Part shown: positions 1-18,445 of the stretch, one piece after another | How positions within the stretch are numbered: position 1 is the stretch's first letter | Layout of the letters: each line of letters opens with the position of its first letter | NCBI RefSeq assembly: GCF_003334315.1 | Contig: NZ_QOWR01000009.1 | Strand: one strand, 5' to 3' | DNA: 64,000 bases | DNA from: Escherichia coli | Lineage (GTDB): Bacteria; Pseudomonadota; Gammaproteobacteria; Enterobacterales; Enterobacteriaceae | Program-made: the position numbers and the translations under genes | Notes under the pieces: model-generated | The model's database searches: none | Seen by the model: only the letters and a program-made list of their open reading frames with translations | What the model was told of the DNA's origin: nothing

Positions 1-395
1 ATATAAATGCGGCGTTTCGCTGTGTCCGTGCAGTCCTGCCGCATATGATTGCGCAGAGGTCGGGCGATATAATTTTTACCAGTTCCATCGCGGGCGTCGT
101 TCCGGTTATCTGGGAACCGATCTACACCGCGTCCAAATTTGCCGTTCAGGCATTCGTACACACTACCCGCCGCCAGGTTTCTCAATATGGCGTGCGTGTG
201 GGTGCGGTGCTGCCAGGACCAGTAGTCACTGCCCTGCTTGATGACTGGCCAAAAGCCAAAATGGAAGAAGCCCTGGCAAATGGTAGCCTGATGCAACCGA
301 TTGAAGTGGCGGAATCAGTATTGTTTATGGTGACCCGCTCGAAAAATGTCACCGTGCGAGATTTAGTGATCCTGCCTGGCAGTGTCGATCTGTAA
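1..395 (+). CDS. rbtD: Ribitol 2-dehydrogenase (short-chain dehydrogenase/reductase), 5'-truncated by the window edge; the reading frame is open from position 3
   Basis: Frame is open from the window start into ORF 45..395. The C-terminal sequence (...[29 protein letters not shown]...[11 protein letters not shown]...) has the SDR catalytic Y-x3-K and closely matches Klebsiella/E. coli C ribitol dehydrogenase as I remember it. Confidence 0.8.
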
Positions 396-405
396 GGGCG
401 CAATC

Positions 406-2010
406 ATGACAATAACCAAAACCGTTATTGGTGTTGATGTGGGATCAGGCAGTGTCCGCGCCGGGATTTTTGATCTCAACGGATCTCTGCTATCCCATGC
501 CACAGAAAAAATCACGACTACGCGGCGCAGCGGAAGCCGCGTGGAACAGTCCAGCCAGGAGATCTGGCAGGCGGTCTGTTCATGTATTCGTAATGCGCTC
601 ACTCTGGCAGACGTTTGTGCACAAAGTGTGGCAGGCATCGGTTTTGATGCCACCTGTTCTCTGGTGGTACTGGATAAAAACGGTGATCCATTGCCTGTCA
701 GCCCGGAAGGAGATGCAAAGCAAAATATCATTGTGTGGATGGATCACCGCGCCACCGAACAAGCAGAGCGAATCAATGCCACTCACCATCCGGTGCTGAA
801 CTACGTCGGTGGTAAAATTTCGCCTGAAATGGAAACACCGAAAATTCTCTGGCTGAAAGAAAATATGCCAGAGATCTACGAACGTGCCGGACAATTTTTC
901 GATCTGGCCGATTTTCTGACCTGGCGGGCTACCGGTGATTTAGCGCGTTCAGTATGCACTGTTACCTGTAAATGGACGTGGCTGGCACATGAAAATCGCT
1001 GGGATCCAGATTATTTCCGCACCATTGGCCTTGCAGAGTTAGCGGATGAAGATTTTATTCGCATTGGTCATCATATTGTTTCTCCCGGAACACCTTGTGG
1101 AAATGGTTTAACAGCACAAGCCGCGGCAGAGATGGGATTACTCCCCGGCACACCTGTCGCTGTAGGGTTAATTGATGCTCACGCTGGTGGCATCGGTACG
1201 GTTGGCGTAGAAGGTGGAGCGCTGAACAATCTCGCGTATGTTTTCGGCACTTCTTCATGCACCATGGCATCTACCACTTCTCCCTCGTTTGTACCGGGTG
1301 TCTGGGGGCCGTATTACAGTGCGATGGTTCCAGGTCTGTGGTTAGTTGAAGGCGGGCAAAGTGCTGCGGGAGCAGCTATTGACCAGCTACTTGATTTCCA
1401 TCCGGCTGTTGAAGAAGCTCGCGAAATGGCACAACGTGTGAATCAGCCCCTCCCCGTCTGGCTTGCTGATCGAATCCTCGAAAAAACGGCGCAACCATCA
1501 GATGCTGTCGCCCTGGCGAAAGGGCTACACGTGGTGCCGGAATTTCTCGGAAATCGCGCCCCCTTCGCAGATCCTCATGCCAGAGCGGTAATTTGTGGCC
1601 TGGGTATGGAGCGAGATCTGGATAATTTACTCGCCTTGTATATCGCTGGATTATGCGGAATTGGTTATGGTCTGCGCCAAATTCTCGACGCTCAAACAGC
1701 GCAGGGAGTAGTGAGTAAAAATATCGTTATTAGCGGCGGTGCCGGGCAGCATCCACTGGTACGACAAATTCTGGCAGATACCTGCGGTATTCCGGTCATT
1801 ACCACGCAATGCTGCGAACCGGTTTTATTAGGCTCGGCCATTCTTGGTGCTGTCGCCGGAAATATTGCACCTTCTGTTGGCGAAGCGATGCAACAATTCA
1901 CCCATGTGGATAAATATTATTATCCGCAAGAACGCTATCAATCTCTTCATCATCGTCGATATGAGGCCTATAAGCAGTTGCAGCATACTGCAAAATTACT
2001 CAGAGACTAA
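406..2010 (+). CDS. rbtK: D-ribulokinase, FGGY carbohydrate kinase family
   Basis: The N-terminal motif IGVDVGSGSVRAGIFD is typical of FGGY kinases and the protein is about 534 aa. It lies directly downstream of rbtD. Start chosen at the second ATG (406), which follows the rbtD stop and an AGGG Shine-Dalgarno-like sequence. Confidence 0.75.
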   Translation: MTITKTVIGVDVGSGSVRAGIFDLNGSLLSHATEKITTTRRSGSRVEQSSQEIWQAVCSCIRNALTLADVCAQSVAGIGFDATCSLVVLDKNGDPLPVSPEGDAKQNIIVWMDHRATEQAERINATHHPVLNYVGGKISPEMETPKILWLKENMPEIYERAGQFFDLADFLTWRATGDLARSVCTVTCKWTWLAHENRWDPDYFRTIGLAELADEDFIRIGHHIVSPGTPCGNGLTAQAAAEMGLLPGTPVAVGLIDAHAGGIGTVGVEGGALNNLAYVFGTSSCTMASTTSPSFVPGVWGPYYSAMVPGLWLVEGGQSAAGAAIDQLLDFHPAVEEAREMAQRVNQPLPVWLADRILEKTAQPSDAVALAKGLHVVPEFLGNRAPFADPHARAVICGLGMERDLDNLLALYIAGLCGIGYGLRQILDAQTAQGVVSKNIVISGGAGQHPLVRQILADTCGIPVITTQCCEPVLLGSAILGAVAGNIAPSVGEAMQQFTHVDKYYYPQERYQSLHHRRYEAYKQLQHTAKLLRD

Positions 2011-2111
2011 TTAACCAGCCGCCTGACGCTGTTTTCAGGCAATCACTAATAACGACTCACTCCGGTAATATCCCGGAGTGCATTCATCTGCACCCTAAAA
2101 ACGAGGTTTAT

Positions 2112-3386
2112 ATGTCCAGAAATAATAAACAGTGGTTGGGTTTGCCACTGCATCTGATATGGGGATATATCGCCATCGCAGTATTTATGACTGGTGATGG
2201 TTTCGAACTCGCATTCTTATCGCACTATATTAAATCGTTAGGCTTCACACCTGCGGAAGCCTCTTTTGCCTTTACGCTCTACGGCCTGGCGGCTGCCCTT
2301 TCCGCCTGGGTTTCTGGGGTAGTAGCGGAAATCATCACGCCGCAAAAAACCATGCTGATTGGTTTTGTCCTATGGTGCGTATTCCATGTTCTGTTTCTGG
2401 TCTTTGGATTAGGACAGGCAAACTATGGGTTAATCCTGCTGTTTTACGGGATTCGTGGTTTAGCGTATCCGCTATTTCTCTACTCATTTATCGTCGTTAT
2501 TATTCATAACGTGCGTAGCGAAAATTCCAGTTCTGCTCTGGGTTGGTACTGGGCGGTATATTCAGTAGGGATCGGTGTTGCTGGCAGTTATATTCCCAGT
2601 TTTACGATACCGATTATGGGTGAAATGGGAACCTTATGGCTGGCACTGGCGTTCTGCTTTGCTGGCGGTGTCATTGCCATGATCTCCTTGCGTCATGTTA
2701 AAACGCCTGGACATATGCATAATTTAACTCCCCGTGAGAAGTTTGCAGAATTAAGTCGGGCAGTAACTTTACTTTATACCAACCGCAATATTTTTCTCTC
2801 CAGTATTGTGCGCATTATAAATACCTTATCGTTATTCGGTTTTGCGGTCATTATGCCAATGATGTTTGTGGATGAACTGGGATTCACCACCTCTGAATGG
2901 TTGCAGGTCTGGGCGGCATTTTTCTTTACCACTATTTTCTCTAATATTTTTTGGGGGATTGTGGCAGAAAAAATGGGCTGGATGCGTGTTATTCGCTGGT
3001 TTGGTTGCCTCGGGATGGCAGCATCAAGTTTAGCGTTTTACTACATGCCGCAATACTTTGGTCACAACTACTGGATGGCAATGATTCCGGCGATTGCTCT
3101 GGGAACTTTTGTTGCTGCATTTGTGCCGATGGCCGCTGTCTTCCCGGCACTGGAACCAAAACACAAAGGTGCTGCAATCTCGGTTTACAACCTCTCTGCG
3201 GGTATGTCTAACTTCCTGGCTCCGGCAATTGCCGTGGTGTTATTACCGTGGTTTAGCACTATCGGTGTGGTCATTGCCTATACAGCATTGTATCTATTGG
3301 CCTTTGTCCTTTGCGCATTCATTCGCGTTGAGCAGCCAGGATTCAGTTCTGCGCCAGTGACTGAGAAGGCATTGAATATCTCCTGA
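2112..3386 (+). CDS. Polytopic membrane transporter (MFS-like), probable ribitol/pentitol permease
   Basis: 424-aa highly hydrophobic ORF with about 12 predicted helices and a GAGG ribosome-binding site; position after rbtD-rbtK suggests the substrate. Confidence 0.6.
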   Translation: MSRNNKQWLGLPLHLIWGYIAIAVFMTGDGFELAFLSHYIKSLGFTPAEASFAFTLYGLAAALSAWVSGVVAEIITPQKTMLIGFVLWCVFHVLFLVFGLGQANYGLILLFYGIRGLAYPLFLYSFIVVIIHNVRSENSSSALGWYWAVYSVGIGVAGSYIPSFTIPIMGEMGTLWLALAFCFAGGVIAMISLRHVKTPGHMHNLTPREKFAELSRAVTLLYTNRNIFLSSIVRIINTLSLFGFAVIMPMMFVDELGFTTSEWLQVWAAFFFTTIFSNIFWGIVAEKMGWMRVIRWFGCLGMAASSLAFYYMPQYFGHNYWMAMIPAIALGTFVAAFVPMAAVFPALEPKHKGAAISVYNLSAGMSNFLAPAIAVVLLPWFSTIGVVIAYTALYLLAFVLCAFIRVEQPGFSSAPVTEKALNIS

Positions 3387-3408
3387 AAAACGAAACGCAT
3401 CAGGCACT

Positions 3409-3434
3409 CATCCTCTCCCTCATGGGAGAGGATG
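3409..3434. terminator. Bidirectional intrinsic terminator hairpin between the convergent transporter gene and fbaB
   Basis: Perfect 11-bp inverted repeat CATCCTCTCCC/GGGAGAGGATG with a 4-nt loop, flanked by an A-rich run upstream and T-rich sequence downstream. Confidence 0.5.
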
Positions 3435-3442
3435 ATTTCACA

Positions 3443-4495
3443 TCAGGCAATAGTGACTTTGTTATCGAGATAAACGTCCTGCACGGCGTTAATCAGTTTC
3501 ACGCCGTCAGCCATCGATTTCTTAAATGCTTTCCGCCCCAGAATCAGCCCCATTCCGCCTGCGCGTTTGTTGATAACCGCAGTACGCACTGCATCGCTGA
3601 GGTCAGTTTCACCGCCCGCAGCACCGCCGGAGTTTATCAACCCAGCCCGACCCATATAGCAGTTAGCTAACTGATAACGCACCAGATCAATCGGGTTTTC
3701 GCTGGTCAATTTGCTGTAAACACGATCGTCGGTGTAACCGTAATTAATTGCTTTATAGCCGCCGTTATTTTCCGCCATTTTTTGTTTGACGATATCTGCA
3801 CCGATGGTTGCCGCCAGATGGTTTGCCTGACCGGTCAGGTCGGCGGAAACATGGTAATCAACGCCATCTTTCTTAAAGGCGGAGTTACGCAAATAGGCCC
3901 ACAGCACTGTCACCATACCCAGCTCGTGCGCACGTTCAAAAGCCGCAGAAATTTCTTCAATCTGGCGACGTGACTCTTCCGAGCCAAAATAGATAGTCGC
4001 ACCAACCGCAACCGCGCCCATGTTGAACGCCTGCTCCACGCTGGCATACAGCGTTTGATCGTAGGTATTCGGGTAACTTAGCGTCTCGTTGTGATTAAGT
4101 TTGACGAGGAATGGAATGCGATGCGCATAACGCCGCGATACCGACGCCAGCACGCCGTAAGTTGACGCCACACAGTTACAGCCCGCTTCGATCGCCAGTT
4201 CAACAATGTTTTTCGGGTCAAAGTAGAGCGGGTTAGCAGCAAATGAAGCTCCGGCAGAGTGCTCAACGCCCTGGTCAACCGGCAGAATAGAAAGATATCC
4301 TGTGCCAGCCAGACGCCCGGTGTTGTACAACGTCTGCATATTACGTAACACCGCTGGCGGGCGATTATTGTCAATCATTACGCGGTCTACGTAGTCATGT
4401 CCGGGGAGATAAAGCTGGTCAGAAGGAATTGTCATACAACGGTGCTGTAAAAGGTTGTCGGCGTCTTTGCCAAGCAACTGCGCAATATCTGTCAT
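3443..4495 (-). CDS. fbaB: Fructose-bisphosphate aldolase class I
   Basis: Protein begins [16 protein letters not shown]...; 350 aa when started at the internal ATG of ORF 3443..4567. Confidence 0.9.
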
Positions 4496-4751
4496 TACTA
4501 TGCTCCCGTAAATTCCGATTGGATATCGGCTATGGATTGTCCTGGCCCGCCTTTTGCGGGCAATCATAATCCTGGTCGTTACGGGCGAGTTTTTCCATCT
4601 TTTGGATGTTTTTTCAGCGTTTTCTGTTGGCTCGATTCATCAGAAAAAATGTTAGCGCGGTCAAGTTTTCACCGCAAAGGTATTTAAAAGGTATTATTAA
4701 GTGGTATTGTCATCGCGTACCTTACATTACCTGTCATGAAGGAATTAAAAG

Positions 4752-6029
4752 ATGAAAACAACAGCAAAGCTGTCGTTCATGATGTTTGTTGAATGGTTTA
4801 TCTGGGGCGCGTGGTTTGTGCCATTGTGGTTGTGGTTAAGTAAAAGCGGTTTTAGTGCCGGAGAAATTGGCTGGTCGTATGCCTGTACCGCCATTGCGGC
4901 GATCCTGTCGCCAATTCTGGTTGGCTCCATCACTGACCGCTTTTTCTCGGCGCAAAAAGTGCTGGCGGTATTGATGTTCGCAGGCGCGCTGCTGATGTAT
5001 TTCGCTGCGCAACAGACCACTTTTGCCGGGTTCTTTCCGTTACTGCTGGCTTACTCTCTAACCTATATGCCGACCATTGCGCTGACTAACAGCATCGCTT
5101 TTGCCAACGTGCCGGATGTGGAGCGTGATTTCCCGCGCATTCGTGTGATGGGCACTATCGGCTGGATTGTCTCCGGTCTGGCATGTGGTTTCTTGCCGCA
5201 AATACTGGGGTATGCCGATATCTCACCGACTAACATCCCGCTGCTGATTACCGCCGGAAGTTCTGCTCTGCTCGGTGTGTTTGCGTTTTTCCTGCCCGAC
5301 ACGCCACCAAAAAGCACCGGCAAAATGGATATTAAAGTCATGCTCGGCCTGGATGCGCTGATCCTGCTGCGCGATAAAAACTTCCTCGTCTTTTTCTTCT
5401 GTTCATTCCTGTTTGCGATGCCACTGGCGTTCTATTACATCTTTGCCAACGGTTATCTGACCGAAGTCGGCATGAAAAATGCCACCGGCTGGATGACGCT
5501 CGGCCAGTTCTCTGAAATATTCTTTATGCTGGCATTACCGTTTTTCACTAAACGCTTTGGTATCAAAAAGGTATTATTGCTTGGTCTGGTCACCGCTGCG
5601 ATCCGCTATGGCTTCTTTATTTACGGTAGTGCGGATGAATATTTCACCTACGCGTTACTGTTCCTCGGTATTTTGCTTCACGGCGTAAGTTACGATTTTT
5701 ACTACGTTACCGCTTACATCTATGTCGATAAAAAAGCCCCCGTGCATATGCGTACCGCCGCGCAGGGGCTGATCACGCTCTGCTGCCAGGGCTTCGGCAG
5801 TTTGCTCGGCTATCGTCTTGGCGGTGTGATGATGGAAAAGATGTTCGCTTATCAGGAACCGGTAAACGGACTGACTTTCAACTGGTCCGGGATGTGGACT
5901 TTTGGCGCGGTGATGATTGCCATTATCGCCGTGCTGTTCATGATTTTTTTCCGCGAATCCGACAACGAAATTACGGCTATCAAGGTCGATGATCGCGATA
6001 TTGCGTTGACACAAGGGGAAGTTAAATGA
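4752..6029 (+). CDS. yegT: Putative nucleoside transporter (MFS)
   Basis: 425-aa polytopic ORF in the yegTUV arrangement downstream of fbaB. Confidence 0.85.
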   Translation: MKTTAKLSFMMFVEWFIWGAWFVPLWLWLSKSGFSAGEIGWSYACTAIAAILSPILVGSITDRFFSAQKVLAVLMFAGALLMYFAAQQTTFAGFFPLLLAYSLTYMPTIALTNSIAFANVPDVERDFPRIRVMGTIGWIVSGLACGFLPQILGYADISPTNIPLLITAGSSALLGVFAFFLPDTPPKSTGKMDIKVMLGLDALILLRDKNFLVFFFCSFLFAMPLAFYYIFANGYLTEVGMKNATGWMTLGQFSEIFFMLALPFFTKRFGIKKVLLLGLVTAAIRYGFFIYGSADEYFTYALLFLGILLHGVSYDFYYVTAYIYVDKKAPVHMRTAAQGLITLCCQGFGSLLGYRLGGVMMEKMFAYQEPVNGLTFNWSGMWTFGAVMIAIIAVLFMIFFRESDNEITAIKVDDRDIALTQGEVK

Positions 6030-7030
6030 AAACAGAACGTATTCTCGGTGCTCTTTATGGGCAGGCGTTAGGGGATGCGATGGGGATGCCCTCCGAGCTT
6101 TGGCCACGCAGCCGCGTTAAAGCACACTTTGGCTGGATTGACCGTTTTCTTCCTGGACCAAAGGAGAATAACGCGGCCTGTTATTTTAACCGCGCCGAAT
6201 TCACCGACGATACCTCGATGGCGCTGTGTCTGGCGGATGCGTTACTGGAACGTGAAGGCAAGATCGATCCGAATCTGATTGGGCGTAATATTCTCGACTG
6301 GGCGCTGCGTTTCGACGCCTTTAACAAAAACGTACTTGGTCCGACCTCGAAGATTGCGCTTAACGCCATTCGCGACGGTAAACCCATTGCTGAACTGGAA
6401 AACAACGGCGTGACCAACGGCGCAGCGATGCGCGTCTCGCCATTAGGTTGTTTGCTTCCGGCGCACGATGTTGATTCCTTTATTGATGATGTGGCGCTGG
6501 CGTCCAGCCCGACCCATAAATCCGATCTGGCGATTGCAGGCGCGGTAGTCATCGCATGGGCGATTTCTCGTGCCATTGACGGAGAAAGCTGGTCAGCGAT
6601 TGTAGATTCACTGCCTTCAATTGCGCGACATGCACAGCAAAAACGCATCACTACCTTCAGCGCCTCACTGGCAGCACGTCTGGAGATTGCGCTGAAAATT
6701 GTGCGCAATGCCGACGGCACCGAATCCGCCAGCGAACAGCTTTACCAGGTCGTTGGCGCAGGTACCAGCACTATTGAGTCCGTTCCGTGCGCCATTGCGC
6801 TGGTTGAACTGGCACAAACCGACCCGAATCGCTGCGCCGTCCTGTGCGCTAACCTTGGCGGCGACACAGACACCATCGGCGCTATGGCGACGGCGATTTG
6901 CGGCGCGTTGCATGGCGTTAACGCTATCGATCCTGCATTAAAGGCGGAACTGGATGCGGTAAATCAGCTTGATTTCAACCGCTATGCCACAGCGCTGGCG
7001 AAATATCGTCAACAACGGGAGGCGGTATGA
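6026..7030 (+). CDS. yegU: ADP-ribosylglycohydrolase family protein
   Basis: 334 aa; start overlaps the yegT stop by 4 nt (translational coupling). Confidence 0.85.
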   Translation: MKTERILGALYGQALGDAMGMPSELWPRSRVKAHFGWIDRFLPGPKENNAACYFNRAEFTDDTSMALCLADALLEREGKIDPNLIGRNILDWALRFDAFNKNVLGPTSKIALNAIRDGKPIAELENNGVTNGAAMRVSPLGCLLPAHDVDSFIDDVALASSPTHKSDLAIAGAVVIAWAISRAIDGESWSAIVDSLPSIARHAQQKRITTFSASLAARLEIALKIVRNADGTESASEQLYQVVGAGTSTIESVPCAIALVELAQTDPNRCAVLCANLGGDTDTIGAMATAICGALHGVNAIDPALKAELDAVNQLDFNRYATALAKYRQQREAV

Positions 7031-7992
7031 GCGGCGCTCGATTACACACGCTGCTGCCTGAATTAACCTCGCGTCAGCCGGTGATGGTCGTCGGCGCGGC
7101 GGTCATTGATGTGATCGCCGACGCTTATGCCCTCCCCTGGCGTGGGTGCGATATCGAACTGAAGCAGCAGAGCGTTAACGTTGGCGGCTGCGCACTGAAT
7201 ATTGCCGTGGCGTTAAAGCGCCTCGGCATCGAAGCGGGTAATGCCTTGCCGCTCGGTCAGGGCGTGTGGGCGGAGATTATTCGCAACCGGATGGCGAAAG
7301 AGGGGTTAATCAGCCTGATCGATAACGCCGAAGGCGATAACGGCTGGTGTCTGGCGCTGGTTGAGCCGGATGGCGAACGCACTTTTATGTCATTCAGCGG
7401 TGTGGAAAATCAGTGGAATCGCCAGTGGCTGGCGCGATTAACCGTTGCGCCTGGCAGCCTGCTCTATTTTTCCGGTTATCAACTGGCCTCGCCCTGCGGC
7501 GAATTGTTAGTGGAATGGCTGGAAAAGCTGCAAGACGTGACGCCGTTTATCGATTTTGGCCCACGTATCGGCGATATCCCGGACGCATTACTGGCGCGGA
7601 TCATGGCCTGTCGACCTTTAGTATCACTCAATCGTCAAGAGGCTGAGATTGCCGCCGAACGTTTTGCTTTATCCGCAGAGATAACAACACTTGGCAAGCA
7701 ATGGCAGGAGAAATCTGCCGCGCCGTTGATCGTTCGTCTCGATAAAGAGGGTGCATGGTATTTCAGCAACGACGCTTCTGGCTGCATTCCGGCATTTCCA
7801 ACGCAAGTTGTAGACACCATTGGGGCGGGCGACAGTCATGCAGGTGGCGTACTTGCCGGGCTGGCCTCTGGTCTGCCACTGGCGGATGCCGTATTACTGG
7901 GCAATGCAGTGGCGTCGTGGGTTGTCGGGCATCGGGGCGGTGATTGTGCGCCAACGCGCGAGGAACTACTCCTCGCACACAAAAACGTATAG
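7027..7992 (+). CDS. yegV: PfkB/ribokinase-family sugar or nucleoside kinase
   Basis: 321 aa with the GAGD motif near the C-terminus; 4-nt overlap with yegU. Confidence 0.85.
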   Translation: MSGARLHTLLPELTSRQPVMVVGAAVIDVIADAYALPWRGCDIELKQQSVNVGGCALNIAVALKRLGIEAGNALPLGQGVWAEIIRNRMAKEGLISLIDNAEGDNGWCLALVEPDGERTFMSFSGVENQWNRQWLARLTVAPGSLLYFSGYQLASPCGELLVEWLEKLQDVTPFIDFGPRIGDIPDALLARIMACRPLVSLNRQEAEIAAERFALSAEITTLGKQWQEKSAAPLIVRLDKEGAWYFSNDASGCIPAFPTQVVDTIGAGDSHAGGVLAGLASGLPLADAVLLGNAVASWVVGHRGGDCAPTREELLLAHKNV

Positions 7993-8712
7993 ATCGCTGC
8001 GACAGTGGCTAATGCTGTACTCAATAGGCCGTTGCTGTTGGTCAAGCGCCACTTGCTTGATCACCAGCACCGGTATTTTGCTATCTAACTGAATATGTGA
8101 CTGAAACTCGGCATCCGGCATCCGGGCGCTAACGCGGGAACGTGTACGTTGTGGGTAAATGTGCTGGCTGCGGAAATAGTCATAAAGTGAAATCCCGATG
8201 GCATCAACATCATGAATTAAATGCGCCGGAACCCACGATTCCTCAATCGATACCGCTTCTTCATCGACATAGCGAATACGCTTAAGCAAAAAGACATCAC
8301 TTCCTGCTTCGACCGCCAGCTGCTGCGCGACTTCTTCGGGACATTTCACGACACGCTTGTTAACCCATAGCGTATCGGGCTTTTTCCCGCGCAATACCAC
8401 CTGCTGAGAAAAACCTCGCGCTTCTTTCAACGAGTATTCGAAGATGTTGTTGATCTGCGTGCCGTAACCGCGCGAACGCGTCACCACACCCTCTTCTTCC
8501 AGCGCCTGCATCGCCTTGCGCACCGTAATGCGCGAAACGCCGGTTAACTGACTTAAATCACGCTCACCGGGCAAAATATTGCCATGCTCCAGCACCCCGC
8601 TGCGCACGGCATTTTTTACCGTTTCGGCAAACTTAATATAAAGCGGCGTGTTATCCGCAGCTAAAATACGCTCGTTCAGTTGGGCAATCAGCTGGGTATG
8701 CGCTTGTTCCAT
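7966..8712 (-). CDS. yegW: GntR/HutC-family transcriptional regulator
   Basis: 248 aa; N-terminal winged-helix region (...LPGERDLSQLTGVSRITVRKAMQAL...) and a UTRA-like C-terminal part. Confidence 0.85.
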   Translation of the reverse strand: MEQAHTQLIAQLNERILAADNTPLYIKFAETVKNAVRSGVLEHGNILPGERDLSQLTGVSRITVRKAMQALEEEGVVTRSRGYGTQINNIFEYSLKEARGFSQQVVLRGKKPDTLWVNKRVVKCPEEVAQQLAVEAGSDVFLLKRIRYVDEEAVSIEESWVPAHLIHDVDAIGISLYDYFRSQHIYPQRTRSRVSARMPDAEFQSHIQLDSKIPVLVIKQVALDQQQRPIEYSISHCRSDLYVFVCEE

Positions 8713-8763
8713 TTGTCTTTTTCCTGCCAGGGAGTCTGGTGGGAGTATATCACTGCTTCTTAT

Positions 8764-9591
8764 TTAAGGCGTTTCTTTAATCCCATCAACGAATCCCTGC
8801 AACTCCTCCACCGTGCCATTAAACACATTAAAATCCACCGGACCATTGATGCCATCTACCTGTCCACGGTCGGAATGCTGCCAGAAGCGCCAGGCCATTC
8901 CGTCATTGTCCGGACGACGTTGATAATAGTGAGCCACCCACCACGGATATTCATTAAAATAGCCCGCCAGATTCGTGTGATAAAAAACGGCTCCTGAGTA
9001 AATAATCGGCTTTTTTCCCGTGCGTTTTTCTACCATTTTTAGCCACTGACTTACCCGCTTGCGTAATTCTTTTGCCGATAATTTTCCCCGTTCTTCTACG
9101 TCCAGCACGGCAGGGAAATCGCCTTGTGAGAAATCCACCGTTTGCAGAAATAATCGTGCCTGAACCGGCGCTGCTACCGACGGGGAGAAATAATGATACG
9201 CCCCGCGCAGCAGGCCATTTTCGCGGCTTAGTTGCCAGTTACGCGAAAAATAGGGGTCCACCAGCTTTTCGCCTTCCGTCGCCTTAATAAAAGCAAACTG
9301 TAAGCGGATACCGTTGTCGCGCATTTTTGCCACCCGCTGCCAGTCGATCCGCTCCTGCCAGCGAGAAACATCTATTCCGTGAATGGTGTAACTGGCAGGA
9401 ATGCGAATAGCGAAAGATTTAACCGGGCGATAACCGTAGAAATGGATGTAGTCTTTAATCTGAATTGCTGTCGAATAGAAAAAATTCACCGTCTGACGCG
9501 GATAAATTGCAACGATAGAAATTAGCCCAAGAGCGCATAATAGAGAGGTGAGTTTTTTTCGACTGGTAATTCTTAGCTGCATTGGTTTCAT
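8764..9591 (-). CDS. yegX: Glycoside hydrolase family 25 (lysozyme-like) protein
   Basis: 275-aa ORF with an N-terminal signal/anchor; the true start may be the internal ATG 3 codons downstream. Confidence 0.8.
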   Translation of the reverse strand: MKPMQLRITSRKKLTSLLCALGLISIVAIYPRQTVNFFYSTAIQIKDYIHFYGYRPVKSFAIRIPASYTIHGIDVSRWQERIDWQRVAKMRDNGIRLQFAFIKATEGEKLVDPYFSRNWQLSRENGLLRGAYHYFSPSVAAPVQARLFLQTVDFSQGDFPAVLDVEERGKLSAKELRKRVSQWLKMVEKRTGKKPIIYSGAVFYHTNLAGYFNEYPWWVAHYYQRRPDNDGMAWRFWQHSDRGQVDGINGPVDFNVFNGTVEELQGFVDGIKETP

Positions 9592-9646
9592 CCCTGAATG
9601 TCAGTGCAAAAGACTGACAATAACCAAAGCAGCTATAGTACGGTGC

Positions 9647-10447
9647 TCACCACCAGGCGTGGAAGTGGTGAACCGGACCAATACCGTGACCAACTTCCAG
9701 CGTGTCGGCCTGGGCTAACGCCGATGAAAGCCAGCTTTTTGCCTCCTGTACGGTGTCAGCCCAGTTTGTATGGCGCGGGCGTAGTGCAGCCAACGCCGCA
9801 GAGAGTGTACAACCAGTGCCGTGGGTGTTTTTGGTCATAATGCGCGGTGCGGTAAACCGTTGTTCACCCTCGCGGGTAAACAGCCAGTCCGGGCTTTGCT
9901 CATCATCCAGATGACCACCTTTCATTAGCACTGCGCCACAGCCCATCGCCAACAGCGATCGCCCTTGTTCCAGCATTTCCTGTTCGGTGCGCGCGTGTGG
10001 CGCGTCGAGCAAGGCGGCAGCTTCGGGCAAGTTTGGCGTTATTAATGAAACCTGTGGCAATAATCGACTGCGCAGCGTAGCAACCGCCGAAGGTGAAAGC
10101 AGCGGGTCGCCGCTTTTTGCCAGCATAACGGTGTCGAGTACCACGTTTTGGATCTGATAACGTTGCAACCGTTCTGCCACCGCTTCAACAATATCGGTTT
10201 CCGCCAACATACCGATTTTAGTGGTATCGATTCGCACATCGCTGAACACCGAATCGAGCTGGGCGGCGACAAAATCAGGCTCAATGCGATACACCGACTG
10301 TACGCCACGGGTATTTTGCGCCACCAGTGCAGTAATAACTGAGCAACCATAAGCGCCAAGTGCCGAGAAGGTTTTAAGATCGGCCTGAATCCCCGCACCA
10401 CCACTCGGATCAGTACCGGCAATCGTCAGAGCGTTAATTCGTTTCAT
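9647..10447 (-). CDS. thiD: Hydroxymethylpyrimidine/phosphomethylpyrimidine kinase
   Basis: 266 aa, beginning [31 protein letters not shown].... Confidence 0.9.
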
Positions 10448-11232
10448 GCCTGCACCTCCTGCGTCAATTGCCAGAGCGCATCAAGGAAATGTGGAACAAA
10501 ACTGCCTGGCCCCTCGCTTCTGGCGACTGCGCGTTCTCCGGCTTGTTTCATCCAGTGACAGGCAGATGCGACATTTTCCAGCATATCGCCTGGTAACGCA
10601 CAACAGGCAGCGACAACCGCCGATAATGCACAGCCAGTTCCTACCACTTTGGTCATTAACGGATCGCCACCGTGAATGCCAATGATACGATGTCCATCGG
10701 TAACATAATCCACCTCGCCAGTGACCACGACGATTGCGCCAGTTTCCCGTGCCAGTGTTTGTGCAGCGGGTATCGCGTTAGCTGCGGCGTCAGTGGTATC
10801 CACTCCCCGCCCACCATTAGCAATGCCAGCTAATGCCATGATTTCCGAAGCATTACCACGTATCGCTGCCGGTTTAAAAGATAAAAGTTCATGACAAAAA
10901 TGGCGGCGATAATCGAGCGCACCCACCGCTACTGGATCAAGCGTCCAGGGTGTTTGAGAGCTTTTTGCTTGCTCAACGGCAGCACGCATCGCCTGTGTGC
11001 GTGGCTGCGTCAGTGTGCCAACGTTAATCAACAAGGCACTGGCGATAGCCGCAAACTGACTGGCCTCTTCGGTTTCGATAACCATCGCTGGCGATGCACC
11101 GAGCGCCAGCAAGGTATTGGCAGTAAAGGTTTGCACCACATCGTTGGTCATGCAGTGCACAAGAGGGGAATGTTGGTGAAAAAGGTGTAACGTGTGCGCA
11201 GATTGCGCTGAACTCAGCAGGTCGACTTGCAT
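10444..11232 (-). CDS. thiM: Hydroxyethylthiazole kinase
   Basis: 262 aa; stop overlaps the thiD start (thiMD operon). Confidence 0.9.
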
Positions 11233-11261
11233 AGTTTGCTCCTGCCATAACGTGAAGAAGC

Positions 11262-11385
11262 AATGACCTGGTGGTCCGTGACTTCCCTACGCTGGCATTA
11301 TCCAGATCAGGTGATACGGGTATTTCTCAGCCTTCACGCAGAAGGGCACCCCGAGTCGTTTGGTTGCGATGATAAATCGCAGAGG
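11262..11385 (-). promoter_or_regulatory. TPP (THI-box) riboswitch in the thiM 5' leader
   Basis: The reverse complement of the leader contains ...GGGGUGCCCUUCUGCGUGAAGGCUGAGAAAUACCCGUAUCACCUGAUCUGGAUAAUGCCAGCGUAGGGAA..., including the conserved CUGAGA thi-box. It lies immediately upstream of the thiM start. Boundaries are approximate. Confidence 0.75.
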
Positions 11386-11454
11386 AGGATGGTAATGTCC
11401 AGCGCACGCGTTGTAAACGAGGAAAAACGGCAGTTTTACAATCGCGTTAATAAA

Positions 11455-11727
11455 TTATTTGATATATGAATCCAGCACCTTCAGAACGACATCCAGATCT
11501 TCTTCACGTTTTAGCTCATCCCCCTGGTGAACGATATGTTCCGTTAGATGACCTTTAATCACTTCCCGCATCAGACCGTTTACCGCGCCACGGATAGCAG
11601 CAATCTGTTGTAAAACTGCAGCGCATTCGTGCGGCTCGTCGAGCATTTTCTTGAGCGCCACGACCTGGCCCTGAATCTTACTGGCACGCGCTTTCAGTTT
11701 CTGTTTATCACGGATTGTATGAGACAT
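11455..11727 (-). CDS. rcnR: Ni(II)/Co(II)-responsive transcriptional repressor (CsoR/RcnR family)
   Basis: 90 aa; divergent from rcnA. Confidence 0.9.
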
Positions 11728-11775
11728 GGCAACACCTGGTTAACAAGAACATGAAAAATCATAGCACTATTAATC

Positions 11776-11810
11776 TACTGGGGGGTAGTATCAGGTACTG
11801 GGGGGGAGTA
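11776..11810. promoter_or_regulatory. Tandem RcnR operator sites (TACT-G6/7-N-AGTA) in the rcnR-rcnA intergenic region
   Basis: tactggggggtagta and tactgggggggagta are seen directly between the divergent rcnR and rcnA genes; this is the known G-tract operator architecture. Confidence 0.7.
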
Positions 11811-11847
11811 GAATCAGATTGCCGAATTAATACTAAGAATTATTATC

Positions 11848-12672
11848 ATGACCGAATTTACAACTCTTCTTCAGCAAGGAAACGCCTGGTTCTTCATCCC
11901 CAGCGCCATCTTACTTGGTGCGCTTCATGGCCTGGAACCAGGGCACTCAAAAACGATGATGGCGGCGTTTATCATCGCCATCAAAGGCACCATTAAACAG
12001 GCGGTGATGCTCGGACTGGCAGCAACCATTTCGCATACCGCGGTGGTCTGGTTGATTGCCTTTGGCGGGATGGTGATCAGTAAGCGCTTTACTGCTCAAT
12101 CAGCAGAACCGTGGCTCCAGCTGATTTCCGCAGTGATCATTATTGGCACCGCGTTCTGGATGTTCTGGCGTACCTGGCGCGGCGAACGCAACTGGCTGGA
12201 GAATATGCACGGGCATGATTATGAGCATCATCACCACGATCACGAAGATCACCACGACCATGGACATCATCACCATCACGAACATGGCGAGTATCAGGAT
12301 GCCCATGCACGAGCCCATGCCAATGACATTAAACGACGCTTTGATGGTAGAGAGGTCACCAACTGGCAAATTTTGCTATTTGGCTTAACCGGTGGCCTTA
12401 TCCCCTGCCCGGCAGCAATTACCGTGCTGTTGATATGCATTCAGTTGAAAGCCCTGACACTGGGCGCAACACTGGTCGTCAGTTTCAGCATTGGCCTGGC
12501 GTTAACGCTTGTCACCGTAGGCGTTGGCGCAGCAATCAGCGTTCAGCAGGTCGCAAAACGCTGGAGCGGATTTAACACTCTCGCTAAACGCGCCCCCTAT
12601 TTTTCCAGTCTGTTGATTGGCTTAGTTGGTGTGTATATGGGCGTACATGGCTTCATGGGCATAATGCGATAA
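11848..12672 (+). CDS. rcnA: Nickel/cobalt efflux protein
   Basis: 274-aa membrane protein with a His-rich cytoplasmic loop (HGHDYEHHHHDHEDHHDHGHHHHHEHGE). Confidence 0.9.
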   Translation: MTEFTTLLQQGNAWFFIPSAILLGALHGLEPGHSKTMMAAFIIAIKGTIKQAVMLGLAATISHTAVVWLIAFGGMVISKRFTAQSAEPWLQLISAVIIIGTAFWMFWRTWRGERNWLENMHGHDYEHHHHDHEDHHDHGHHHHHEHGEYQDAHARAHANDIKRRFDGREVTNWQILLFGLTGGLIPCPAAITVLLICIQLKALTLGATLVVSFSIGLALTLVTVGVGAAISVQQVAKRWSGFNTLAKRAPYFSSLLIGLVGVYMGVHGFMGIMR

Positions 12673-12890
12673 CTCAATCCTTTAGGCTTGCATGTTATCT
12701 TCAGCCCAGGATGATTCTTAAATCAGCTATTTCCGCTGACTCTCTGCTCGCTAAGGATGCTTTTAGGGCATCCTTTCATTTACACTTTTTACGAAATCAT
12801 GGGATCACTAACAAAATATCGCTTGTCAGTTATATTGTATGGCAGGAAAGATATGCGACTGATATTACAGATCCCCAAAGTGGAGAGTTT

Positions 12891-13229
12891 ATGACCATTA
12901 AAAATAAGATGTTGCTGGGTGCGCTTTTGCTGGTTACCAGTGCCGCCTGGGCCGCACCAGCCACCGCGGGTTCGACCAATACCTCGGGAATTTCTAAGTA
13001 TGAGTTAAGCAGTTTCATTGCTGACTTTAAGCATTTCAAACCAGGGGACACCGTACCAGAAATGTACCGTACCGATGAGTACAACATTAAGCAGTGGCAG
13101 TTGCGTAACCTGCCCGCACCTGACGCCGGAACCCACTGGACCTATATGGGTGGCGCGTACGTGTTGATCAGCGACACCGACGGAAAAATCATTAAAGCCT
13201 ACGACGGTGAGATTTTTTATCATCGCTAA
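12891..13229 (+). CDS. rcnB: Periplasmic protein modulating Ni/Co efflux
   Basis: 112 aa with signal peptide (MTIKNKMLLGALLLVTSAAWA). Start set at the internal ATG of ORF 12711..13229. Confidence 0.8.
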   Translation: MTIKNKMLLGALLLVTSAAWAAPATAGSTNTSGISKYELSSFIADFKHFKPGDTVPEMYRTDEYNIKQWQLRNLPAPDAGTHWTYMGGAYVLISDTDGKIIKAYDGEIFYHR

Positions 13230-13240
13230 AAAAAGCCCCC

Positions 13241-13259
13241 TCGGAGAGAGGGGGAAATG
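13241..13259. terminator. Bidirectional terminator hairpin between rcnB and yehA
   Basis: CCCCCTC-ggaga-GAGGGGG stem-loop flanked by an A-run and T-rich sequence, between convergent genes. Confidence 0.45.
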
Positions 13260-13310
13260 CAGACACCTTATTATTTCTTATTATTAGCCACTTGCTCGTC
13301 TTGCTTGTTA

Positions 13311-14345
13311 TTAGTCGTATTTCACGTTGATTAATGCGGTTGCTTCCAGTGCGCCAGATTTAACTTTGTTTGTATCGTAGACGTAGTAACTGGCTGTTAT
13401 CGGAATTGAAACCGTTGTATCTGTAAGTTTTGACTTTGCCGCAATTTCTTTTAAATTTGTGTATCCTTTACTGCTGTTAGTGATATTTAAAAGTGTGACT
13501 GGCGAACTATTACTTTCAAGAATAAATCCTACGCCATTATCTTCCGCACCTTTCAGTATTGTGTTGCTGTTGGTTAACAAGTCAGAACTTGATAAATACA
13601 CCTGCATTTTCCGTGATGTTTGATTTTGTTGACCTAATAAATTTTTACAACGCAGAATAATATCCCCTTGTTTACTATTTATTGTTGCTTTGTTACCTGT
13701 GGCTGGTAATTGTGAAACGGGAATACTGTCTAAAGTAATTAATAAATCGTCCGGTTTGCAGGTTGTGGTTATCGGGTTGTATGACAATGTCAGATTAAAG
13801 GAATAGACACCTGCATTTTGTGCCAATGCATTTCTGTAGCTATTTACACATGCATCCCATGACTTGCCACCTAATAAACACAGTAGAAATTGTACTGCGG
13901 CACTCCCGCGTGTCGATGATGAAGCACTGGATAATGTTGCAACACCATTAATCATCACTGAACCGCCGCCCCCCGCAGAAACATTCACTTTTGCATTACT
14001 GGCCGCAGGTGTCACCGTTACCGAATAACCATTGGTGAAACTGGTCTGATTATTTGACAACGTGATGTTATTTTTATTGGTCCATTCAAAATGTAAATTT
14101 AATTTAATGGTATCGTTATAAAGTCCAACAATAATATCCGACGGGCTCATAGGGGTGATAGTATTTGTACTTACGCATGACGAATCATTAAAATTATGCT
14201 CATATGTCGCCATTTGTGTTTGAGTAAGTGCAAAACCCCCCTGAACAACCAAGTTGTGCTGAACAGATAACTCACTATAACATGCCGCATAGCTCACAGG
14301 CATAACCATCATCATTAATATAAATAGCATTATGCGAATTTCCAT
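13311..14345 (-). CDS. yehA: Fimbrial adhesin-like (tip) subunit of the Yeh chaperone-usher fimbriae
   Basis: 344 aa with signal peptide; last gene of the yehDCBA operon. Confidence 0.85.
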   Translation of the reverse strand: MEIRIMLFILMMMVMPVSYAACYSELSVQHNLVVQGGFALTQTQMATYEHNFNDSSCVSTNTITPMSPSDIIVGLYNDTIKLNLHFEWTNKNNITLSNNQTSFTNGYSVTVTPAASNAKVNVSAGGGGSVMINGVATLSSASSSTRGSAAVQFLLCLLGGKSWDACVNSYRNALAQNAGVYSFNLTLSYNPITTTCKPDDLLITLDSIPVSQLPATGNKATINSKQGDIILRCKNLLGQQNQTSRKMQVYLSSSDLLTNSNTILKGAEDNGVGFILESNSSPVTLLNITNSSKGYTNLKEIAAKSKLTDTTVSIPITASYYVYDTNKVKSGALEATALINVKYD

Positions 14346-14360
14346 AGAACCACCTGACTA

Positions 14361-16841
14361 TTACTGGCAAATATAATTTCTACTTTCATCAATCTCTTTA
14401 CCGAAGGTGATTGTGCATGAAAGTCCTTGTTGCTTATCAATTGCCACATTAACCGATGGCGGTACTTCATTGGTGCGAATAAATAACTGACTTCCCTGGC
14501 CGACAACGCCAATATTATGACCATGGATATCATTGACTTCATAACCAAACGTTAATGATTGCCCATCTGCTCTTAACGCTTTTATAAACCATGGCTTGCG
14601 CTGATCGGTATCAAAATTAACAAGTACAACCGCGCCGCGATAAGGGGCGGCAATTTTCCGGTTGCCACGTAATTCTGCTTCGCTATCGCTTTGCGACACA
14701 TCCAGCATCAGGTGATTTTCCCGATAAGGTGTCATTCCGTCGTATATCACCACTCCATTACGGTTTGTTGTGCGATATTTTTGCCCATTGACATAAGCAT
14801 CTTTAATTCCTGGCGCATTCATCACAGCAAACGTTTCGGAAAGACGGTTCGCCAGATTAACGCCACCCGACCAGGCGACAATGCCCCCTAAAACACTGGC
14901 TCCAGCCTGTCGATAAGTACTCGACTGACTATAACTGCCATTCACTGTCGCAACCGGCGCGTTCCAGGTCAAATTCGCCCCAGCTGTCGTTTCATTTCCC
15001 TGATGTTGATGACTCAGGTTGACACCATAATTGAACTGATCCCGACTCCCTACTGTTCCTGATAATCCCGTATTATTTGAGGCAAACCCCTGATCATCAA
15101 ACGTCGTTGAGTTAGACATATATATTTGCCGACGAGGCGTCGAAACGTCATCACCCCAATCAAAGGGAATCGATATAAAAATATTAAAACGTTTCTCTTC
15201 ATGATGATTCTCGTCATAAGCCTGGCTTGCCGCGAGGGTATAGCTTATCCGTCGCAGGTTGTTGGAATAACTCAACTGATAATCCTTACTACTGCCGCTA
15301 CGCCCCCAGTAATCTCGCCATAACGTACTTAATGACACAGACCCCCAACCTTCTGGCAATGACTGGCTCATATTGGCGGAAAAGCTATTTTTGCGGCCAA
15401 AATCGTTCTGGTAATAATCGGCAATGTCATAGACATCGTTTTCATCACGGCGATAATTATCTTTATTGTTTGCCCAAACGTGATCGTTAAATGTCCGGTA
15501 ATCACGCGACGAATAACGCCAGGCCGCCAGACCAAAACGCGTCGACGTTTGGCTCACAAATTTGTTGTAGGCAATTTGATAACTTTGCCCGTCAAACACA
15601 TCGCCGTTGTCTTGTTTACTATGCGACTTAGTGGCATCGACGGAAATGGCACCAATGCGTGTATTCCAGCCAGCCCCCAAAGTAAACGCGTAATAATTAT
15701 TCGCGACCATCGAGCCACCATACAGCGTCAATAAATTATTAAAACCATACTGATAACCCGCCTGGACAAAATCACTTTGTTTGCTCGCCCCTTCAATATG
15801 GCTACGACCCGCCGCTAAATCATATTTCGACACGCCGGGTTGCAGCATATTTGGCACCGCTGCATAAGGCACCAGATAGGTGGTTACCGAGCCGTCCGCC
15901 TCTTTCACGCTGACATCAAGATCTGCTCCACCACCGGCCAACTGCAAATCTGTAATCGCGAACGGGCCAGGAGGAACCTCTTTCTGATAAACCACAAAAC
16001 CATTCTGTTCAATAGTTACCAGCGCGTTACTCTGAGCAATCCCCTGCACCCGTGGCGTAAAATTTTGTTTCGAGTTAGGCAACATCTGCATATCACGAAA
16101 CAACCGCACACCTCTGAAGCGAACAGAATCAAAAATATCGCTTGATGTGTACATATCACCCACGCGAAGCGTGCCGAGAAGTTGGGCAAATCCACGTTCC
16201 AGATACAGGGTATTGCTTTTCCACACCCCTGGATTGTTATTTGTTTTACTGAAACTGGCATCAGAATGCAGTTGCCACCCCAGTAAATTTAACCCGCTGT
16301 TAAAACGTACATATGTACTCTTGTTATTACCCGACGCTTTATAGTCGCTGTAATACTGACTCAGATAATAAGAGGTATAAAACGCATTAATACCCCGCTC
16401 CCAGTTTTCCGGTGGAACATAGCCACTTTCCAGTTCTTCCACCCAGGCCTGCGGGACACTGAAATCGAGACGAAAAACCCCGATATCCCAGGTATAGCTC
16501 CCACCCTGAACAAGTTGCTCAAATGTTAAACATTGCTTACCGCTGGCGAAGTTATCGCTATTAATGCCTAACCGCTTGATAACTTCTCTTGATAAACATG
16601 TTTCTTGCGGGTTGTCTTTAACAATAATCTCATATTTCCCGCGCCATTGCTTATTGACATAAATATCGATGTCATACTGCCCCGGTAAGGGTTGATTATC
16701 ATCAAGACGAATATTTGCAACCTGCTGGTCTTTCATTCCACCTATCATAAAATGGGTATCAAAGGTTTCTTCAGCTGCATAAGCTTCAATGCCGAGCAAT
16801 AACGCTACGATTGCTGATGCAAGTGGGGTCATTCTCAACAT
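14361..16841 (-). CDS. yehB: Fimbrial outer-membrane usher
   Basis: About 826 aa usher-family protein. Start could alternatively be the upstream ATG at 16856. Confidence 0.85.
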   Translation of the reverse strand: MLRMTPLASAIVALLLGIEAYAAEETFDTHFMIGGMKDQQVANIRLDDNQPLPGQYDIDIYVNKQWRGKYEIIVKDNPQETCLSREVIKRLGINSDNFASGKQCLTFEQLVQGGSYTWDIGVFRLDFSVPQAWVEELESGYVPPENWERGINAFYTSYYLSQYYSDYKASGNNKSTYVRFNSGLNLLGWQLHSDASFSKTNNNPGVWKSNTLYLERGFAQLLGTLRVGDMYTSSDIFDSVRFRGVRLFRDMQMLPNSKQNFTPRVQGIAQSNALVTIEQNGFVVYQKEVPPGPFAITDLQLAGGGADLDVSVKEADGSVTTYLVPYAAVPNMLQPGVSKYDLAAGRSHIEGASKQSDFVQAGYQYGFNNLLTLYGGSMVANNYYAFTLGAGWNTRIGAISVDATKSHSKQDNGDVFDGQSYQIAYNKFVSQTSTRFGLAAWRYSSRDYRTFNDHVWANNKDNYRRDENDVYDIADYYQNDFGRKNSFSANMSQSLPEGWGSVSLSTLWRDYWGRSGSSKDYQLSYSNNLRRISYTLAASQAYDENHHEEKRFNIFISIPFDWGDDVSTPRRQIYMSNSTTFDDQGFASNNTGLSGTVGSRDQFNYGVNLSHQHQGNETTAGANLTWNAPVATVNGSYSQSSTYRQAGASVLGGIVAWSGGVNLANRLSETFAVMNAPGIKDAYVNGQKYRTTNRNGVVIYDGMTPYRENHLMLDVSQSDSEAELRGNRKIAAPYRGAVVLVNFDTDQRKPWFIKALRADGQSLTFGYEVNDIHGHNIGVVGQGSQLFIRTNEVPPSVNVAIDKQQGLSCTITFGKEIDESRNYICQ

Positions 16842-16856
16842 AGGCAGCTCCTGCAA

Positions 16857-17531
16857 TTAAATTTTGTCACTAATATAGTTGCCATGGTCATCGATAATGG
16901 TCAGATGCCAGTTATTTGCATTATTACTTTTGACATTAACACTCTGACTTTCTAAGGGGGCAATCATAATAGTTTCATAATTGACTTTGACATTATTAGC
17001 TTTGACATCCGAAATCGTCACCCAATTAGCTGAGTCATTTTTTATCACCAAACCATTGCCACTGCGATTTACCAGCAATTTTTTAAATGTCGCTTTATTT
17101 ACCGGAGCAATACCCGCTGGCCGGTAAAACAACTTAATTCTGTTTTGCATCGCAAACTTCAGTGCATTCTTACCTTCTTGCTCTGGACTATTTGGTGGAA
17201 TATCCAGAACATTCAGATAAAAAATGCTTTCTTTATTAGTGGGCAGTTTATTCGGCATAGTTTTGATTTTTACTTGCTGCCCGGAATTTGCCCCTATTTT
17301 TGCCACTGGTGGCGTTAACATGAAAGGAACCTGAATTTTTTCTGGTGGTAATGACGTATCGCCATCATCAATCCACGCCTGCAGCAGCGAAGAACGGTTT
17401 CCCTGGTTCATCAACTGCACCATCACTTCTTTATTTTCTGCCGGGTAAATAATGCGCGTCCCGTAGATAACAATTCCGGCATGTGCAGGAAGGACCATAG
17501 AAAAAATGAGTAAAGATAATAATCCTTTCAT
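16857..17531 (-). CDS. yehC: Fimbrial periplasmic chaperone (PapD-like)
   Basis: PapD-like chaperone sequence. Start chosen at 17531 (MKGLLSLL... signal peptide) because a strong AAGAGGA Shine-Dalgarno sits 5-6 nt upstream. The ORF-track start at 17576 would place the intergenic hairpin inside the coding sequence. Confidence 0.75.
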   Translation of the reverse strand: MKGLLSLLIFSMVLPAHAGIVIYGTRIIYPAENKEVMVQLMNQGNRSSLLQAWIDDGDTSLPPEKIQVPFMLTPPVAKIGANSGQQVKIKTMPNKLPTNKESIFYLNVLDIPPNSPEQEGKNALKFAMQNRIKLFYRPAGIAPVNKATFKKLLVNRSGNGLVIKNDSANWVTISDVKANNVKVNYETIMIAPLESQSVNVKSNNANNWHLTIIDDHGNYISDKI

Positions 17532-17553
17532 TTTAATTCCTCTTAAATTAAAA

Positions 17554-17574
17554 GGCCGCCATGGGATAGCGGCC
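17554..17574 (-). promoter_or_regulatory. Intercistronic stem-loop between yehD and yehC
   Basis: GGCCGC-catgggata-GCGGCC inverted repeat between the major-subunit and chaperone genes; partial terminator/mRNA-stability elements at this position are typical of chaperone-usher operons. Confidence 0.4.
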
Positions 17575-17610
17575 ATGTTTATTACCTGGAGAAACTTACA
17601 ATTTTATTTA

Positions 17611-18420: not shown

Positions 18421-18445
18421 ATGCAATTAAAATCAGGTTGCCAAA

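Follow-up and report, generated by a model that had tools for sequence, protein, structure and literature searches.

Why does the chromosomal site beside fbaB hold genes for ribitol in some strains of Escherichia coli and genes for galactitol in others, and how strictly does the one set exclude the other? The question is raised by a 64,000-nucleotide stretch of E. coli DNA (NCBI RefSeq assembly GCF_003334315.1, contig NZ_QOWR01000009.1; one strand, 5' to 3'), hereafter the window, which opens within the ribitol genes rbtD, rbtK and rbtT and then runs into fbaB. The polymorphism is already known: it was described in the 1980s, and the 'genotypic exclusion' between the rtl-atl (ribitol and D-arabitol) and gat (galactitol) genes is credited to Link & Reiner 1983 (Mol Gen Genet 189:337), as cited in PMC6805351 and PMC2806823. 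To this we add modest refinements, namely a mapping of the junctions, a count showing zero overlap, and the distinction of two alleles that have diverged deeply. Taken as a whole, we consider it very probable that the ribitol and D-arabitol genes of the E. coli C type (the C-type pentitol block) behave as an allele of the gat locus, having entered the species once and spread by recombination in the flanks.

Positions 1 to 3616 of the window are identical, base for base, to E. coli C (NZ_CP020543.1), and over 1-3450 numerous further genomes likewise match at 100%. Between yegS and fbaB, E. coli C carries a HAD hydrolase gene, dalT-dalK-dalD, dalR, rbtR and rbtD-rbtK-rbtT, with dalK annotated as xylB. 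In good agreement with the original prediction, which had placed the gat operon next to fbaB in K-12, the annotation of MG1655 lists gatR (split by IS3E), gatD, gatC, gatB, gatA, gatZ and gatY between the same two genes, gatY adjoining fbaB. In pairwise alignments the homology of the C-type and K-12 haplotypes stops at the yegS and fbaB stop codons, and the pentitol block and gatR-gatY fill the same chromosomal interval, from the yegS stop to the fbaB stop. By alignment, window positions 1-3539 correspond to the rightmost third of the pentitol block of the E. coli C type, which is 11.2 kb long, and the assignment of the window to an rtl+ lineage is borne out by its carrying sequence of that block 100% identical to E. 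coli C. The divergent LacI-type regulator gene rbtR and the adjacent dal operon with dalR lie, in the E. coli C locus, outside the window; there, in sequence identical to ours, rbtR, dalR, dalD, dalK, dalT and the HAD gene reach all the way to yegS and gat is absent. The window does open inside an accessory segment, as had been proposed, but 3386 is not where that segment ends: it continues into the 3' end of fbaB, to about 3539. The rtl-atl region of E. coli C shares the yegS-fbaB site and the absence of gat with the window strain and shows no difference within the block; from 3617 onwards, fbaB and its downstream flank are another allele in the window strain.

The population counts were made by megablast on 5426 complete E. 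coli genomes, with window 1-3450 as the rbt query, the K-12 gatD-gatY segment (5372 nt) as the gat query, and the two joined as a union query. The C-type block was found in 308 genomes, at 99% identity or more in each, and gat in 5106, in 2856 of which it is 95-99% identical to the query. The joined query matches 5414 genomes, which equals 308 + 5106; the overlap is zero, and therefore no complete genome has both the C-type block and gat. Twelve genomes have neither. The block occupies 309 places, all of them chromosomal and none on a plasmid (a single place in every genome except one), and its identity is 99.8-100% in every full-length match listed, across a spread of the 308 genomes. The proposed match to the rtl/atl versus gat exclusion of C-type strains thus holds in identity, site and counts alike. 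Deviant copies do occur: six of the 308 block-positive genomes cover less than 80% of the window query, H103, H138, H146 and H147 are among the deviants, some with IS2 or IS1 in rbtK or rbtT, and in PSS-08-2 just the last 609 nt of rbtT are left beside fbaB.

The edges of the block lie within its conserved neighbours. On the right, the flank of the polymorphic site is formed by the core gene fbaB (3443..4495, minus strand), which is annotated by RefSeq as class I fructose-bisphosphate aldolase, scores 814 bits against NF006706 in NCBIfam, and is convergent with rbtT; beyond it, the open reading frames (ORFs) of window 1-9000 give yegT, yegU, yegV, yegW and yegX. We compared fbaB site by site between the window, E. 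coli C, K-12, three gat-carrying strains (RHB-type, E2348/69 and CB9615), C. koseri and K. pneumoniae. Relative to K-12, the window and E. coli C have in common nine substitutions at 3449-3539, within the last 97 nt of the gene (3443..3539, minus strand). Eight of the nine are absent from all gat-carrying E. coli compared, and the ninth, at 3449, is also present in the RHB-type gat strain. The left edge mirrors the right: the final 31 nt of yegS carry six block-specific substitutions, and at four of them C. koseri has the same base. The imported segment would therefore extend from about nucleotide 870 of yegS to about window position 3539, some 11.2 kb. Since these tracts of single-nucleotide polymorphisms (SNPs) fall in the ends of yegS and fbaB, they point to replacement by flank recombination, not transposition, and we read the block edges as homeologous-recombination tracts inside conserved genes and not as insertion junctions.

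Mismatch profiles of the window against E. coli C and K-12 place a further exchange to the right of the block. The window equals E. coli C up to 3616 and matches K-12 exactly over 3540 to about 4990; E. coli C and K-12 differ from each other at 18 sites between 3617 and 4539. The crossover point of the window strain would accordingly fall in the interval 3540..3616 and that of E. coli C near 4540, so that an identical block is joined to different fbaB alleles in the two strains. By these flanks the window strain is distinct from E. coli C itself. Over 19.4 kb the window shows 217 mismatches to E. coli C, spread as a mosaic through 3617-19450: from about 5000 it differs from both K-12 and E. 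coli C, mismatches to E. coli C cluster at 13001-13500 and 15001-15500 (the yehA-yehB fimbrial genes), and 16001-17250 is again identical to E. coli C. For window 3400-28000 the top match among complete genomes is just 99.6%.

Because the block is near-monomorphic, compared with 95-99% identity for gat, and its flanks are mosaic, we favour a single recent entry followed by lateral spread. The C-type block would have reached E. coli in a single event, brought in from a relative with the same yegS-to-fbaB synteny and without gat by recombination in the conserved flanks; the entry crossovers would fall within the terminal ~31 nt of yegS and ~97 nt of fbaB, and gat would have been removed thereby. 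Later spread between E. coli lineages would have proceeded by ordinary homologous recombination in the flanks, each transfer swapping out gat. Flank recombination of this kind necessarily replaces gat, hence the 'genotypic exclusion'.

The exclusion is, however, allele-specific: it applies to the C-type block only, is not absolute, and is not inherent to the dal and rbt genes, because a divergent dal-rbt allele sits in tandem with gat in 27 of the 5426 genomes. This second allele came to light in a protein search with RbtD, which returned an E. coli variant 94% identical (P0050). It is only ~84% identical to the window, so that the window megablast query misses it, and it was counted with its own DNA as megablast query. 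Its order is yegS-HAD-dalT-dalK-dalD-dalR-rbtR-rbtD-rbtK-gatR-gatD-gatC-gatB-gatA-gatZ-gatY-fbaB, with rbtT absent, and the homologous regulators at these loci have Pfam LacI/Peripla_BP and Sugar-bind domains. Against the C-type block the second allele is 79-84.5% identical at the nucleotide level, whereas the flanking yegS and fbaB are 97-99% identical. The tandem haplotype of CB9615 and E2348/69 thus resembles the C-type block in its site and in the dal/rbt order from the HAD gene to rbtK; unlike it, the CB9615-type haplotype lacks rbtT and passes from rbtK directly into gatR and a complete gat operon. Thirteen of the 27 genomes, including O55:H7 CB9615, RM12579 and DEC5 strains, are intact, and in the other 14, including E2348/69, rbtR, rbtD and rbtK survive only as pseudogenes, next to intact dal and gat. 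In E2348/69 itself (locus L009, NC_011601.1 2297546-2299841), rbtR, rbtD and rbtK are truncated or frameshifted, and dalT, dalK, dalD, dalR and the whole of gat are intact. The tandem dal-rbt-gat arrangement of O55:H7 CB9615 was reported by Zhou et al. 2010 (PMC2806823), together with its loss in the O157:H7 lineage. One history that we find evenly balanced between true and false is that two ancient dal-rbt alleles, 16-21% divergent, have existed at yegS-fbaB, the C-type having introgressed once, recently, from an unsampled lineage close to Escherichia, and the exclusion being a property of the C-type only; the O55:H7-type arrangement may then be ancestral, and the gat-only state may have arisen from it by deletion.

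The dal-rbt block is also found beside fbaB in other genera. C. koseri ATCC BAA-895 has the order yegS-HAD-dalT-dalK-dalD-dalR-rbtR-rbtD-rbtK-fbaB-yegT, without rbtT and without gat, and in K. pneumoniae HAD-dalT-dalK-dalD, dalR, rbtR and rbtD-rbtK-rbtT are followed by fbaB-thiD-thiM. As both have dal-rbt beside fbaB, the block abutting this gene is an old, conserved arrangement in the Enterobacteriaceae. The per-gene identities order the loci with the C-type and O55-type together, then C. koseri, then K. pneumoniae. The dal-rbt regulon of K. pneumoniae and K. aerogenes (Heuel et al. 1998, Microbiology 144:1631; Neuberger et al. 1981) has the same order, the same families and an fbaB convergent on rbtT, but it is only 69-77% identical to the C-type block in nucleotides and 72-86% in amino acids (72% for RbtK), its rbtT-fbaB spacer and hairpin differ, and thiDM, not yegTUVWX, follow fbaB. 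The C. koseri locus, with both yegS and fbaB as flanks and no gat, has the arrangement expected of the donor; at 74-81% nucleotide identity and without rbtT, it is nonetheless too distant to be the donor. Outside E. coli, donor searches with the RbtD and RbtK proteins gave no match in the range from 85% to ~99% identity, and since no RbtK falls in that interval, no donor of the C-type allele can be named. Klebsiella-like ribitol loci are present in some Escherichia according to PMC12307932. Two further FGGY D-ribulokinases described there (Cottam et al. 2025, PMC12307932), DarK of the E. coli B fucose locus and RblK of the C. rodentium Rbl ABC system, likewise feed D-ribulose-5-phosphate into the pentose-phosphate pathway; unlike the rbt block, their loci lie at other sites, have other transporters (ABC or none) and other inducers, and have no coupled polyol dehydrogenase.

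The genes at the window start were expected to be the end of a ribitol dehydrogenase gene, a D-ribulokinase gene and a gene for a polytopic transporter. All three lie where they had been placed, and NCBIfam and the structure PDB 9x6o agree with the assignments, so that by homology the genes of window 1-3386 are confirmed as rbtD (3' part), rbtK and rbtT. The rbtD fragment (1..395, plus strand; ribitol 2-dehydrogenase, SDR family) is open from base 3 and holds codons 120-249 of 249, with the stop at 393-395; the 5' 355 nt lie upstream, outside the window. The ORF listing and translation of window 1-9000 show the SDR catalytic motif YxxxK as YTASK, and 123 of the 130 residues are the same as in PDB 9x6o, 'Ribitol 2-dehydrogenase' (seven differ, ~95% identity). 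Full-length rbtD, including the N-terminal NAD-binding half, occupies 15646-16395 of the E. coli C locus (L001). Ten nucleotides separate the rbtD stop from the start of rbtK (406..2010, plus strand; 534 aa), a start that coincides with the RefSeq annotation of E. coli C (L001 16406 = window 406). The predicted product, a D-ribulokinase of the FGGY pentulose kinase family, scores 919.8 bits against TIGR01315 'FGGY family pentulose kinase' (cutoff 408.7) and falls below the NCBIfam cutoffs for AraB-type L-ribulokinase, XylB xylulokinase, GlpK glycerol kinase and FucK fuculokinase; its nearest solved structure is the structural-genomics entry 3gg4/3l0q (E=1e-155). The product of rbtT (2112..3386, plus strand; 424 aa), a predicted ribitol permease of the MFS and the RbtT/DalT/CsbX family, scores 514.7 bits against TIGR00897 'RbtT/DalT/CsbX' (cutoff 375); it shares 86% of its amino acids with RbtT of K. 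pneumoniae and 85% with its paralogue DalT.

In the pathway that these genes would form, RbtT would import ribitol, RbtD would oxidise it with NAD+ to D-ribulose, and RbtK would convert D-ribulose to D-ribulose-5-phosphate for entry into the pentose-phosphate pathway, with rbtDKT under the control of the LacI-family repressor RbtR, whose gene would lie just upstream of the window. The enzymatic steps, the inducer and the regulation are inferred from published work on Klebsiella and E. coli C: the rbt functions from Neuberger 1981 and Heuel 1998, as cited in PMC12307932, and from Link & Reiner 1983, as cited in PMC6805351, and the phenotype, growth on ribitol with induction by ribitol or D-ribulose, from reports on E. 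coli C and Klebsiella (PMC6805351, PMC12307932).

Could the three genes be merely rbt-like and serve another pathway, such as that of xylitol, L-arabitol, erythritol or L-ribulose? The RefSeq names of the block genes are generic ('SDR family oxidoreductase', 'FGGY family pentulose kinase'), and homologues are labelled 'glucose dehydrogenase' or 'ribulokinase' in some databases, which would leave room for this view. Nevertheless, the match is 100% to E. coli C, the classical ribitol- and D-arabitol-positive strain (PMC6805351), the RbtD fragment is close to a solved ribitol 2-dehydrogenase, the kinase stays under the cutoffs for L-ribulokinase, xylulokinase and the remaining FGGY equivalogs, and the genes stand in the same order as in the Klebsiella rbt operon that has been characterised (Heuel et al. 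1998, cited by PMC12307932), with rbtD-rbtK-rbtT of K. pneumoniae syntenic at 72-86% amino acid identity. A best match to a different polyol or pentulose pathway was not what we found, and we regard another identity for rbtDKT as effectively refuted and exceedingly improbable. No greater credence attaches to the idea that the block is a composite-transposon-like element with long inverted repeats that inserted at the site and displaced gat. Link and Reiner are said to have described, in 1982, inverted repeats of ~1.4 kb around the rtl-atl genes of E. coli C, and a repeat search of the E. coli C locus does recover an inverted repeat that flanks most of the block, with arms at L001 9151-10406 and 18089-19344; the right arm (2089..3344 in the window) is 1256 nt long and 78% complementary to the left, which lies 7.7 kb upstream of the window, and in a few genomes insertion sequences (ISs) have landed within the block. 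However, the arms are the coding regions of dalT and rbtT, whose proteins are 85% identical and whose longest identical DNA run is 26 nt. This pair is the only long repeat in the locus, where a search for direct repeats gave none of 30 nt or longer, so that the classical 'inverted repeats' are best read as two paralogous permease genes and not as IS-like termini. The E. coli C annotation shows neither transposase nor integrase between yegS and fbaB, the left arm leaves the HAD gene outside although that gene is part of the block, the edges are SNP tracts in the 3' ends of conserved genes with no sharp insertion junctions, the same order stands beside fbaB in Klebsiella and C. koseri, and all 309 places are chromosomal. 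The features by which a composite transposon or genomic island is recognised (transposase, IS-type ends, target-site duplication, variable sites) were thus lacking. With arms that are dalT and rbtT, no mobility genes and SNP-tract edges, we reject the transposon reading of the repeat as largely refuted.

A physiological explanation deserves somewhat more weight, although we still think it improbable as the chief cause. It holds that cells with the galactitol phosphotransferase system (PTS) are poisoned by D-arabitol and other pentitols, so that double-positive strains are selected out. Such poisoning, through phosphorylation by the galactitol PTS to dead-end pentitol phosphates, was reportedly described by Reiner in J Bacteriol in 1977. 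It fits this explanation that none of the 308 C-type genomes has gat anywhere, not just at the yegS-fbaB site, and that rbtR, rbtD and rbtK have become pseudogenes in 14 of the 27 genomes in which the second allele lies beside gat. Yet the 13 others, including the O55:H7 lineage, keep dalTKD, dalR, rbtRDK and gatRDCBAZY intact and side by side, in E2348/69 decay has hit rbt and not dal, and the positional account alone suffices, with junctions that coincide exactly. The two explanations are compatible and not mutually exclusive; we keep replacement through the flanks as the principal one.

Several points weigh against this account of a single entry and positional exclusion. Those 13 tandem genomes mean that exclusion does not follow inevitably from the presence of pentitol genes, and the megablast union test that gave zero overlap between 308 and 5106 genomes would miss a gat operon under ~85% identity. 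The introgression from a relative is itself deduced from low diversity and flank SNPs, with no donor named, and among 5.8 billion proteins searched the closest RbtK from outside E. coli, that of C. koseri, reaches only 84% identity. The window holds just the 3' 53% of rbtD and none of rbtR or dal, which are supplied from genomes identical over 1-3450, and the function of the pathway in the window strain is predicted from the genes.

Two spacers in the block carry predicted RNA structure. The 101-nt spacer between rbtK and rbtT (2011..2111, plus strand) contains two predicted hairpins, at 2021-2040 and 2058-2080, and folds with -24.6 kcal/mol (z = -2.65). No plus-strand T-tract follows either hairpin, the terminator-like pattern being on the minus strand only, and rbtT is for this reason likely to be co-transcribed with rbtDK. 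Between the stops of the convergent rbtT and fbaB lies a 56-bp spacer (3387..3442) with a hairpin of 12-bp stem at 3408-3435; its fold reaches -28.4 kcal/mol on the plus strand (z = -5.2) and -30.1 kcal/mol on the minus strand (z = -4.1). The hairpin is probably a terminator shared by rbtT and fbaB or another transcript-end structure, as suggested by folding only: a consensus promoter and terminator scan of window 1-4800 gave sites not above shuffled controls and no canonical terminator at the hairpin. The corresponding junction in K-12, unlike the 56-bp spacer, is a gatY-fbaB spacer of 307 bp that contains repetitive extragenic palindromic (REP) sequence. Both K-12 spacers, yegS-gatR and gatY-fbaB (L002 4612-4694 and 12205-12513), have REP-like GCCGGATG... 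palindromes; the C-type junctions lack them and have the unique 12-bp hairpin instead.

Elsewhere in the window, between yehK and yehL at 30339-30414 on the plus strand, the Rfam family of the OrzO-P type I antitoxin RNA (RF02083) is matched over its full length, with 99.9 bits against a gathering score of 60. Among ORFs of at least 20 aa near it there is no obvious small hydrophobic ZorO-like toxin, and the site may be an orphan or degenerate zor-orz locus. A thiamine pyrophosphate (TPP) riboswitch upstream of thiM (11267-11363, minus strand), a Peptidase-S11 RNA motif near pbpG (50804-50884, minus strand) and naRNA4, a REP-derived nucleoid-associated RNA (62533-62610, minus strand), are expected core-genome elements.

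What the ribitol block means for E. coli is modest. Its finding opens no new question of broad interest, and its presence is a useful strain marker and metabolic predictor, nothing more. The window strain belongs to the ~6% of sequenced E. coli in which the ribitol/D-arabitol block is present and the galactitol genes are missing, and the 308 block-positive genomes contradict the claim in PMC6805351 that E. coli C is the sole pentitol-using E. coli. A 40-year-old genetic curiosity thereby receives a sequence-level account, with edges in yegS and fbaB, zero co-occurrence with gat, a near-monomorphic block on mosaic flanks, and a divergent allele that does occur together with gat.

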